DNA from: a virus
Taxonomy: Duplodnaviria > Heunggongvirae > Uroviricota > Caudoviricetes
DNA length: 11,399 bases
Virus record (IMG/VR): IMGVR_UViG_2724679293_000010
Span: 1-11,399 of that record
Direction: 5' to 3' (one strand)
Shown here: positions 6,400 to 9,359 of the stretch, in pieces
How the letters are laid out: each line of letters opens with the position of its first letter
How positions within the stretch are numbered: the stretch's first letter is position 1
The notes under the pieces: generated by a model
What the model was told of the DNA's origin: nothing
The model's input: the letters and a program-made list of their open reading frames with translations, nothing else
Databases searched by the model: none
Program-made: the position numbers and the translations under genes

Positions 6400-6728
6400 C
6401 AGTTCACCACCTGCTTAAACTCCGCGCTGAATTCAACCCGCAGCATGCGAACCCGTGATGACCAGGCGGCACAGGTCACCTTTATCTGCCGCCAGGCATA
6501 AGGCGGTGTCCACAGAAACGCCTTCCAGCCACCGTGCTCTGCCAGGAATGCCTCCAGATGTCGGGCCTCCTCCCGGGTCACGGAAAGCGTCACACGGTAT
6601 GTTTTCAGGTCAGCATTCAGCCCCGCCGCCATACGCTGCGAATACCCGTCACCAAAACGCACTTCACGCACCGATGGCTGCGAGTTCACCTCCATATCCG
6701 GCTTCACTTTCCAGCGAAATGTTTTCAT
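6399..6728 (-). CDS. M: tail tip protein M
   Basis: 109-aa ORF MKTFRWKVKPDMEVNSQPSVREVRFGDGYSQR...EFSAEFKQVVN, same length and near-identical to lambda gpM as remembered. Confidence 0.95.
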   Translation of the reverse strand: MKTFRWKVKPDMEVNSQPSVREVRFGDGYSQRMAAGLNADLKTYRVTLSVTREEARHLEAFLAEHGGWKAFLWTPPYAWRQIKVTCAAWSSRVRMLRVEFSAEFKQVVN

Positions 6729-6803
6729 CGCCTGCCTCCGGAAAAGACGCCGCCATCACGCATCTGCGCCTGAATCTCATCCTGCGCCCCCTTGCGGGCC
6801 ATG

Positions 6804-9359
6804 TCATACACCGCCTTCATCAGCTGCGGCCCCGCCTGTCCGTTGGTTCTGAATCACCACGTGATTGTTCTGATTAAAATTAATACCTTCCGCCCGCCGC
6901 ATCTGCGCCGGACTTCCGGCACCACCCACATAACCACCTTCATAGCCGCGCATCAGACGGTAAAGATTCCCCACACCTATCCGGCTGGTTGCCTCTTTCG
7001 TGAAAACAAACTCCCCGCGGTGAACTATCCCCGCAGGCTCATATTTGCCGCCGGTTCCCGTAAATCCGCCGGTCGCAAAATGGAAGTTCGCTGCCGCAGC
7101 CTCAATGGCCGTCCCCGAGGAAGCCGTTACACCACCTCCAACAACCCCGCCAATGGCGCTGCCGATACGCCCGACAATGCCCACCATGGCCTGTTTAAGC
7201 AGGATTTCTGTCATCATGGACAGCACCGAACGGGTGAATCCCCGCCAGTCTGCCTCTGCACCGGTCAGCATCGCCGCCATATTCTGTGCAATACCGTCAA
7301 AGGTCTGCGTGGCAGCACTTTTAACCTGCGAAAAACTGTCCGTCGCACTTTCCGCCCACTCCCCCCAGCCGGACTTCAGCCCGGCCAGCCAGTCACCGCG
7401 CAGCATGTCTTCATCCGCCCATGTCTGTTTCAGTGCCCCGGTGACCCGGGCCAGCGCCTGCGGATTATCACCGTACACGTCCCGAAGACGCTGCGCTTCA
7501 GACTCCCGCTGCGCCTGACGGTCAGTGAGACCGCGGGCTTTTGCGCTGATGGCGGCCTGCTTCGCGCTCTGCTGCTCTTCAAACCGCACCGCCTGCTGTG
7601 CCAGCTCATTCAGGCGTTTCTGGTGTTCAACCTTGTCGCCCAGGTCAGCCAGCTGGCGTTTGTACTCCAGCGTCTCTTTCTCATGGGCCAGCAGGGATTT
7701 TTCCTGCCAGGATAACTGCCGTTTCGTGGCAGCCTCTTTCAGGACCGCATACTGACTTTCCGCCTTCCATAAATCACGGCGCTGCCGACTGATTTTCTCA
7801 TTCGCACCTCTGTGTTTTTCCAGCGTCCTGAGCTCAGCTTCAAGGGCAAGCAGAGCCTCTCTTGCCTGCTCCTCTTCCCTCTCCCCGGCAGAGCGCGTTT
7901 TCGGTGATGTATGCTTTTTACCTGTCAGCTCTTCAGCCAGACGGCTGACGGCTTCCTGCTGCCCAGGACCTTTGCTGACGCCTGTTGCACGCGAGCGGTT
8001 GATGTACCCCATTTCCCCCTGGCGTATACGCGCATCCCGTTCCGCAATGGATTTTCTCAGCGCCAGTTCATCGCGTTTTGTTTTCTCAATAAATACGCGG
8101 TTCTCTTCTGCCAGTTCACCAAACAACGCACCAACGCCGGGCACATTCTTTGTCGTTTCCCAGGCTGACTGAATAAATTCAGCCAGCGCCAGATCCCCCT
8201 GCACAAGCAGCAGCTTCACTTGTTCAACGGTTCCGGCCACCACGTCAGTGATCAGACTGAGTGCCCCCAGTGTATGATCACCTATCCATGCCCATGCGTC
8301 AGAAGTCCAGGTTTTAACATCGTCCCAGATTTTTTCCACCGGCGTGGCCGCTTTATCAAGTTGCTCCAGACGTGCATTCATGACATCCGCAAACAGGGAC
8401 ATCGCCTCCGTCACCGCAGCCTGTTTACCTTTCGTGCGCTCAAGCTCATCAATATGGCGTAACTGGGAAACGCTCAGGAAGTTATACTGCTGATTCAGGG
8501 AGGCCAGCGCCTTCACCGGATCTGCTGCAATCCCTTCAAAGGCTTTTTCCACCTTCCCGGCATCGTCCCCCACCGTCTGCAGCCATCTCTGAGAGGTTTC
8601 CCCCATGATCCGTAGCTGCCCGGCGGTATATTTCCCGCTTTCTGCCAGACGGGCCAGATTTTCTGCCGCCTGTCTGATACCACCACCGGCTTCATCGCTG
8701 ATCACCCCGGCCATTTTCCACAATTCTGCCGTTGTGGTGGCAGCCGCCCCTCCGGTCAGGATCAGTGAACGCAATAAGGCCCGGTCAGCCTGCTCTGCCT
8801 GCCAGGCGGCGGCAGCAAGCGCGGCCAGTACGGCAACCCCGCCACCTGCCGCCACACGGGCCACCGACATAAATCGTCCCAGCTCACCGGCATTCCGGGC
8901 ATTTTCAGCCAGTGCATTTGCCGTATCTGACAGCGACTCCTCTGATGATTCAGAGGCATCCCTGATCCCGAGAAGTTCCTCCTTCAGCAGGGTAAGCAGG
9001 CTGAGCGGTCCACCGAATGAATCGCTGATCTGCCCCCCCTGCTGCAGCATGATAAGGAAGGGATTCTGACCACCGGCAAGCTGAGTGACAATATCCGTGA
9101 ACTGTGCGGGCAGTGTGCGCATGGCAGCCTTATACTGTCCGACTGATATCCCGGCTTTTTGTGCAGCCAGCGCCTGTCGGCTCAGACTCTGCTCAGCAGC
9201 ATCAGCCTGTTTTCTGAAAGACTGACTGACTTTCCCGGACATCAAATCAGCAAGCGCACTGGTTTCACCCAGCTCTTTTTTTACCCGCGCTGCCTCTTCA
9301 GAAAAACGGGCAGAATCCAGTGTCAGCACGGCTGTCAGATCGGCAAAATTACCTGCCAT
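6804..9359 (-). CDS. H: tail tape measure protein H (reading frame ends 78 bp before the M start; probable C-terminal frameshift)
   Basis: Start placed at the ATG at 9359 (MAGNFADL...) with AGGAGG 8 nt upstream, rather than the track's GTG at 9368. Long Ala/Gln/Glu-rich helical protein with a Gly-rich hydrophobic C-terminal region (MVGIVGRIGSAIGGVVGGG...FATGGFTGTGGKYEPAGIVHRGEFVFTKEA); the C-terminal half is collinear with lambda gpH as remembered. The frame stops at 6806-6804 while the conserved C-terminus continues in another frame to 6725. Confidence 0.9.
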   Translation of the reverse strand: MAGNFADLTAVLTLDSARFSEEAARVKKELGETSALADLMSGKVSQSFRKQADAAEQSLSRQALAAQKAGISVGQYKAAMRTLPAQFTDIVTQLAGGQNPFLIMLQQGGQISDSFGGPLSLLTLLKEELLGIRDASESSEESLSDTANALAENARNAGELGRFMSVARVAAGGGVAVLAALAAAAWQAEQADRALLRSLILTGGAAATTTAELWKMAGVISDEAGGGIRQAAENLARLAESGKYTAGQLRIMGETSQRWLQTVGDDAGKVEKAFEGIAADPVKALASLNQQYNFLSVSQLRHIDELERTKGKQAAVTEAMSLFADVMNARLEQLDKAATPVEKIWDDVKTWTSDAWAWIGDHTLGALSLITDVVAGTVEQVKLLLVQGDLALAEFIQSAWETTKNVPGVGALFGELAEENRVFIEKTKRDELALRKSIAERDARIRQGEMGYINRSRATGVSKGPGQQEAVSRLAEELTGKKHTSPKTRSAGEREEEQAREALLALEAELRTLEKHRGANEKISRQRRDLWKAESQYAVLKEAATKRQLSWQEKSLLAHEKETLEYKRQLADLGDKVEHQKRLNELAQQAVRFEEQQSAKQAAISAKARGLTDRQAQRESEAQRLRDVYGDNPQALARVTGALKQTWADEDMLRGDWLAGLKSGWGEWAESATDSFSQVKSAATQTFDGIAQNMAAMLTGAEADWRGFTRSVLSMMTEILLKQAMVGIVGRIGSAIGGVVGGGVTASSGTAIEAAAANFHFATGGFTGTGGKYEPAGIVHRGEFVFTKEATSRIGVGNLYRLMRGYEGGYVGGAGSPAQMRRAEGINFNQNNHVVIQNQRTGGAAADEGGV

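Follow-up and report, generated by a model that had tools for sequence, protein, structure and literature searches.

The window analyzed here, a stretch of 11,399 nucleotides (nt) held as IMG/VR virus record IMGVR_UViG_2724679293_000010, is the entire contig CDLB01000095.1 of GCA_900000205.1, the draft genome of Escherichia coli O26:H11 strain 21765. This 11.4-kb contig stands alone as a fragment of a lambdoid tail module, with the gene order U, V, G, T, H, M, L, K, I, J, lom, the complete lambda-order tail region. Our subject is gene H, whose deposited reading frame is broken shortly before its 3' end. Its domains, its position, and its C-terminal sequence all mark the gene as a lambda-type tape measure. 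Specifically, its product carries TMP_2 (PF06791, E 6e-46, residues 158-304) and Tape_meas_lam_C (PF09718, E 8e-21, residues 655-729), both intact. These are the same Pfam domains as in the intact homolog of phage Stx2_95, and both lie upstream of the lesion and are unaffected by it. The location of H between chaperone genes G/T and M fits a lambda-type gpH, and annotated relatives agree. The features at the break are the following.

6804..9359, minus strand: truncated tape-measure gene H as deposited, 851 amino acids, consisting of 838 native residues and 13 out-of-frame residues (QRTGGAAADEGGV), then TGA.

6725..6853, minus strand: conserved gpH C-terminus in the +1 frame, FRTNGQAGPQLMKAVYDMARKGAQDEIQAQMRDGGVFSGGRR, ending in TGA 6727-6725, assigned by translation and by its match to lambda.

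6845..6848, minus strand: junction of a frame-shifting 8-nt deletion, placed by alignments to relatives, with a 2-nt ambiguity from AC microhomology.

6940..6942, minus strand: second deletion, an in-frame loss of 3 nt (Ala codon GCG) that changes RGYAEGGY to RGYEGGY, also placed by alignments.

On minus-strand translation, the deposited H frame ends ...NFNQNNHVVIQNQRTGGAAADEGGV at a stop codon, TGA 6806-6804, which leaves a spacing of 75 nt (6803-6729) between the H stop and the M start. The +1 frame is open downstream of TGA 6856-6854, and its own stop, TGA 6727-6725, overlaps the M start codon, ATG 6728-6726, as ATGA. A sequence-only reading of this DNA had reported the premature stop, the spacer, the second frame, and the overlap, and each of those coordinates is correct. 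The same reading took the +1-frame peptide for the gpH C-terminus, and this assignment is borne out: the peptide aligns with lambda gpH 814-853, the last 40 residues (E 3.6e-15, PDB 8IYK chain H), and with the 32-residue gpH fragment modeled in 9E7M (E 1.9e-12). For an out-of-frame peptide, a match of this quality to the gpH C-terminus is far beyond chance. The proposal that the +1 frame keeps the lambda H/M geometry also held, in that H ends in an ATGA overlap with M in every annotated relative retrieved. The last 42 native H codons are lost from the deposited product, intact but unread in the +1 frame. The codons of the gpI-binding C-terminal helix (lambda 818-849) sit in that frame behind the premature TGA, and the deposited H does not carry the helix in frame. 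We note that the third minus-strand frame contains a 47-amino acid open reading frame (ORF) at 6664-6807, whose start codon shares an ATGA (6807-6804) with the premature H stop; the frameshift probably created it by chance.

What separates the two frames emerged from alignments to Stx2a phage Stx2_95, VT1-Sakai, phage Stx2_12E129, and the prophages of strains RM6067W, 7_33_46A, FDAARGOS_293, and 2014C-3061. At the site of the break, the relatives read either CAGAAC-GACGGTAT-CAACGG or CAGA-ACGACGGC-ACCAACGG. The window reads CAGAACCAACGG where the undeleted form is CAGAACGACGG[C/T]A[C/T]CAACGG. Missing, therefore, are 8 nt, GACGGCAC or GACGGTAT in the relatives, which encode QN-DG[I/T]-NGQ. Their loss has a frame effect equal to that of a 2-nt deletion. 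Accordingly, the sequence-only reading, which called for a 1- or 2-nt indel around 6845-6856, had the place and the frame shift right but the size wrong. Lacking these 8 nt at 6848-6845, the deposited H leaves its native frame after residue 838, is read through 13 junk codons, and terminates 75 nt short of the M start. With the 8 nt put back, a single ORF of 880 amino acids runs to the ATGA overlap with M.

The alignments add a change that the sequence-only reading had not seen, the in-frame loss of GCG at ~6941, 95 nt upstream of the 8-nt junction, where the window has TATGAAGG and the undeleted form has TATGCGGAAGG. The second prophage of strain 7_33_46A is the same as the window over 7700-6776 except for both deletions. 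Just eight natural alleles suffice to match every base of H-M (6399-9359), and the two deletions are the sole private features of the region. Signs of further decay are absent: the stranded C-terminal codons match an intact allele (6845-6466 is identical to strain FDAARGOS_293), the other tail genes are intact, and an apparent break in J, described below, is a run of N. Two indels with zero substitutions in ~925 nt is not the pattern that ordinary divergence would be expected to give; it would call for a rare complex mutation or a local processing error. By our own estimate, the chance that independent events place two changes 95 nt or less apart in a contig of 11.4 kb is only ~2%.

Both deletions were searched for in 5,426 complete E. 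coli genomes and 145 phage records, and the 8-nt junction also in species-representative genomes, IMG/VR, and JGI metagenomes. In the complete E. coli genomes, a 70-nt query across the 8-nt junction found the deletion in 0 of 1,485 full-coverage places, all of which carry the extra 8 nt (70/78 identity). The sequence-only reading had named homologs that truly end H at the equivalent of 6804 as the observation that would speak against a frame lesion; none of these 1,485 full-length matches ends there. A 70-nt query across the GCG site found that deletion in 0 of 691 matching records from the same genomes, with a best identity of 70/73. Among the phage records, 145 of which match across the region, neither deletion occurs in the matches listed, and each listed match spans 11 bases more than the query. 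The exact 8-nt junction was not found in the three contig collections (species-representative genomes, IMG/VR, and JGI metagenomes). At the protein level, the Ala residue of RGYA[ETD]GGY is kept in every homologous protein fragment covering the motif. No complete E. coli genome matches H-M at 99% or better over the full length. In each of two E. coli genome searches, one record had a best match of at least 99% identity at low coverage; such matches cannot span the 8-nt junction intact.

The deposited H protein, CEK08795.1 (851 amino acids), occurs on one contig only. It belongs to a cluster of 9,402 members, and 2 of the 15 members listed are 881 amino acids long. A search of 5.8 billion protein clusters, Logan assemblies included, turned up no protein ending in QRTGGAAADEGGV, a weak test given that clustering at 90% identity hides near-identical members. 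The same search returned other, different frameshifted or fragmentary H C-terminal pieces (P0008, P0014, P0015, P0017, P0019, P0021, P0023, and P0026), several of the frameshifted ones from complete chromosomes of 3.8-5.2 Mb. One of them, P0019 from Logan, ends ...DDEGGV, which suggests that the same alternative frame was reached there by a different shift. Broken H 3' ends are thus common in databases, whatever their cause. Taken together, the wider searches provide no independent support for the deletion being real.

How the contig was made bears on how its deletions are to be read. Strain 21765 is a human isolate from the 2005 French raw-milk-cheese outbreak, and it was sequenced on a MiSeq with 2x300 reads at ~1000x coverage (PMC4335332). 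CISA was then used to combine the SPAdes, Minia, Velvet, and MaSuRCA assemblies into 102 contigs, and the announcement of the genome gives accessions for contigs only (PMC4335332). CISA chooses the longest contigs and then extends them with contigs from the other assemblies that align at 80% or more; contig ends are clipped, and merging proceeds via blastn overlaps (PMC3610655). It splits scaffolds only at runs of more than 10 N, and runs of 10 N or fewer are retained (PMC5436433). The tail module of this type is present in several ~95%-identical copies per enterohemorrhagic E. coli (EHEC) genome. One short run of N remains in the window:

3289..3295, no strand: 7-N run in J, a scaffold gap that stands for ~375 nt and makes J look frameshifted.

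Gene J shows as two overlapping ORFs, 3069-4172 and 1022-3250, but it is open on both sides of the gap, with an ATG at 4130. We considered the J break as a second real deletion (~368 nt), and hence as a sign of a decaying prophage, and dropped the idea on these grounds. Across the gap, identity to the prophage of O157:H7 strain RM6067W jumps, from 95.5% on 3296-11399 to 99.9% on the lom/J-C-terminal side (1-3288). The closest relatives of these two halves of the contig also differ, which could reflect natural mosaicism or a chimeric scaffold. The 7-N gap, the identity jump, and the origin in a CISA merge are signs of stitching that are independent of H. The contig is a stitched product with an unresolved repeat.

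We lean, with some reserve, toward the H deletion being an artifact of assembly or merging. This reading is favored because both deletions are private, the stranded codons are undecayed, and the contig is a CISA merge with a mis-sized N gap in a multi-copy region. The notion is that the 8-nt deletion was most likely made during the building of the draft rather than by the bacterium. When contig ends are joined by alignment, a few bases could be lost, and a lossy join of this kind would explain two clean, small deletions 95 nt apart in sequence that has no other private base. If so, the real gene would be a normal H of ~880 amino acids whose stop overlaps the M start as ATGA. The type of artifact differs from the one first suggested. 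The sequence-only reading offered a base-calling error, which does not hold up: a loss of 8 nt in a non-repetitive context is atypical for Illumina, and merging or scaffolding is the relevant artifact.

Several points weigh on the other side. De Bruijn contigs are built of k-mers present in the reads, and Illumina reads rarely drop 8 nt in a non-repetitive context; therefore, an error would be possible only at the merging step. The 8-nt junction itself is free of N and of anything unusual in sequence, and a real slippage event would be consistent with the 2 nt of AC microhomology found there. EHEC prophages often carry tail genes inactivated by mutation, as exemplified by J of VT1-Sakai, annotated "truncated protein by a mutation," and several frameshifted H fragments are from complete chromosomes. 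Finally, the closest relative switches near the deletions in natural alleles as it does in the window, and the switch is therefore no evidence of a chimeric join.

One specific version of a join, which places each deletion at a merge join of L006-like and L007-like paralogs, was weakened by the finding that ten complete genomes share the mosaic over 6875-7165. A chimeric join there is not needed, in that one natural allele, that of 7_33_46A, matches 7700-6776 apart from the two deletions.

The strongest alternative to a merging artifact, possible but in our view less likely, is a genuine lesion, in which a small complex event removed 8 nt and 3 nt from the 3' end of H in one lambdoid prophage of strain 21765. 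The junction sequence is clean and is flanked by the 2-nt microhomology, and an 8-nt loss is an unusual size for an Illumina base-calling error. Defective tail genes are frequent in EHEC prophages, with VT1-Sakai J and the H fragments from the 3.8-5.2-Mb chromosomes as examples. What such a lesion would do to the phage can be predicted from lambda. In the cryo-electron microscopy (cryo-EM) structures, lambda gpH 818-849 forms a trimeric coiled coil in the lumen of the tail tip, where it is held by the gpI trimer, and the cleavage of gpH that yields gpH* and a C-terminal fragment takes place only once the tail has been assembled (PMC10721106, PMC12617516). The frameshift takes away the equivalent of lambda gpH 812-853, that is, the whole gpI-binding element. 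With that segment gone, docking onto the gpI tip would be expected to fail and, with it, the building of tails with the phage's own H. Were the deletion real, the truncated H would thus probably be unable to attach to the tip complex, leaving the prophage without a working tape measure of its own. The prophage would then be defective for tails made with its own H unless the H of a co-resident lambdoid prophage substitutes. Loss of function is what removal of the gpI-held coiled coil would predict, and genes downstream of H need not suffer, M having a GGAGG Shine-Dalgarno sequence of its own.

Other observations fit a genuine lesion less well. It would have to supply two private deletions 95 nt apart with zero private substitutions in H-M, and neither deletion recurs in the other assemblies and collections searched, with the 8-nt junction missing from all three contig collections. 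The rest of the module is undecayed, the J break being merely an N gap, and the contig that carries the deletions is demonstrably stitched.

Readings in which the two-frame arrangement is functional fare far worse. One holds that a programmed +1/-2 frameshift restores H, or that the helix is made separately by re-initiation and acts in trans. We judge it very improbable. In its favor, the +1 frame offers ATGs at 6820-6818, 12 nt upstream of the premature TGA, and at 6802-6800, 1 nt downstream of it, and in mature lambda the C-terminal gpH fragment, gpHC, is a separate polypeptide (PMC12617516). That fragment arises by cleavage after tail assembly, at about residue 700 and not 811 (PMC12617516), and if the protein were already split before assembly, ruler and tip would not be connected. 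Re-initiated peptides would also fall short of the helix's first 5 to 11 residues. Moreover, the two-frame layout occurs in 0 of the 1,485 homolog places: all 1,485 complete-genome matches, as well as the listed phage-record matches, read H in one frame. No slippery or +1 signal was seen in 6853-6806; a by-eye reading, the only kind made, found there neither an X_XXY_YYZ heptamer nor a prfB-like site of a stop plus a Shine-Dalgarno sequence. With neither conservation nor signal behind them, the programmed-frameshift and split-gene readings were set aside. The change of frame in H is a lesion or an error, not recoding. It is just as hard to credit that the deletion is real and that tails are still made, with the helix supplied by a peptide re-initiated at ATG 6820-6818 or 6802-6800 or by the H of a co-resident prophage. 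If that were true, a split or trans-complemented tape measure would mean that the covalent linkage of ruler to tip anchor is dispensable.

The remainder of the module is in good order. Genes U, V, G, T, M, L, K, and I are intact by gene calls and Pfam matches on the contig, and H is the contig's only gene with a frame-breaking change. The gene immediately downstream of H is the following.

6399..6728, minus strand: gene M, 109 amino acids, intact, whose ATG makes the ATGA overlap with the +1-frame stop.

The identical M protein is found on at least 1,000 contigs. Its Shine-Dalgarno sequence, GGAGG, lies at 6739-6735 on the minus strand, 6 nt upstream of the M ATG. Because M possesses this site of its own, lost coupling to H need not silence it.

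Two further observations concern other parts of the contig. At the G-T site, an in-frame slippery heptamer, A_AAA_AAG, lies at 9762-9756 on the minus strand, 5 codons ahead of the TGA (9740-9738) that ends G. The -1 frame entered from this heptamer runs on into T, as expected for the programmed G-T frameshift site; the heptamer differs from the lambda sequence GGGAAAG. The I-J intergenic stretch, 4213-4347, is the most divergent part of the contig and contains several small indels. Of the bases on the contig that have no match in any of eight relatives, 32 in number, most fall within it.

These results have practical consequences for annotation. CEK08795.1 should be regarded as an H that is frameshifted or suspect, the apparent truncation of J on the same contig is an N gap only, and the contig is unsuited for inferring prophage inducibility. 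Should the lesion be confirmed, it would represent a naturally arisen loss of precisely the gpH stretch that recent cryo-EM structures place against gpI, and thus a convenient mutant, not a surprising one. We see no new kind of feature here: a frameshifted prophage tail gene and an indel in a merged draft are both routine.

Errors of CISA-type reconciliation resemble the present case in that a CISA merge of four assemblies was applied to a multi-copy prophage module, with clipped contig ends and a leftover N gap. They differ in that the published evaluations consulted report misassemblies generally and not this particular kind of error; a join at 6846 or 6941 is our own supposition. The defective prophage VT1-Sakai (Sp15) has a near-identical tail module in which, as here, a single tail gene is broken by a small mutation. 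There the broken gene is J and the break is confirmed in a finished genome, whereas here it is H on one draft contig only. The programmed -1 frameshift of tail chaperone genes G and T, conserved among long-tailed phages, likewise draws one tail-assembly protein from two overlapping frames. In H, by contrast, a slippery site is lacking, the shift required would be +1/-2, and no homolog conserves the arrangement. With lambda itself, the window shares the order U-V-G-T-H-M-L-K-I-J-lom, the TMP_2 and Tape_meas_lam_C domains, the last 40 residues of gpH, and the ATGA overlap at the H-M junction. The difference from lambda is that, via the 8-nt deletion, 42 C-terminal codons are out of frame here, and the predicted product is without the equivalent of the gpI-binding helix, lambda 818-849.

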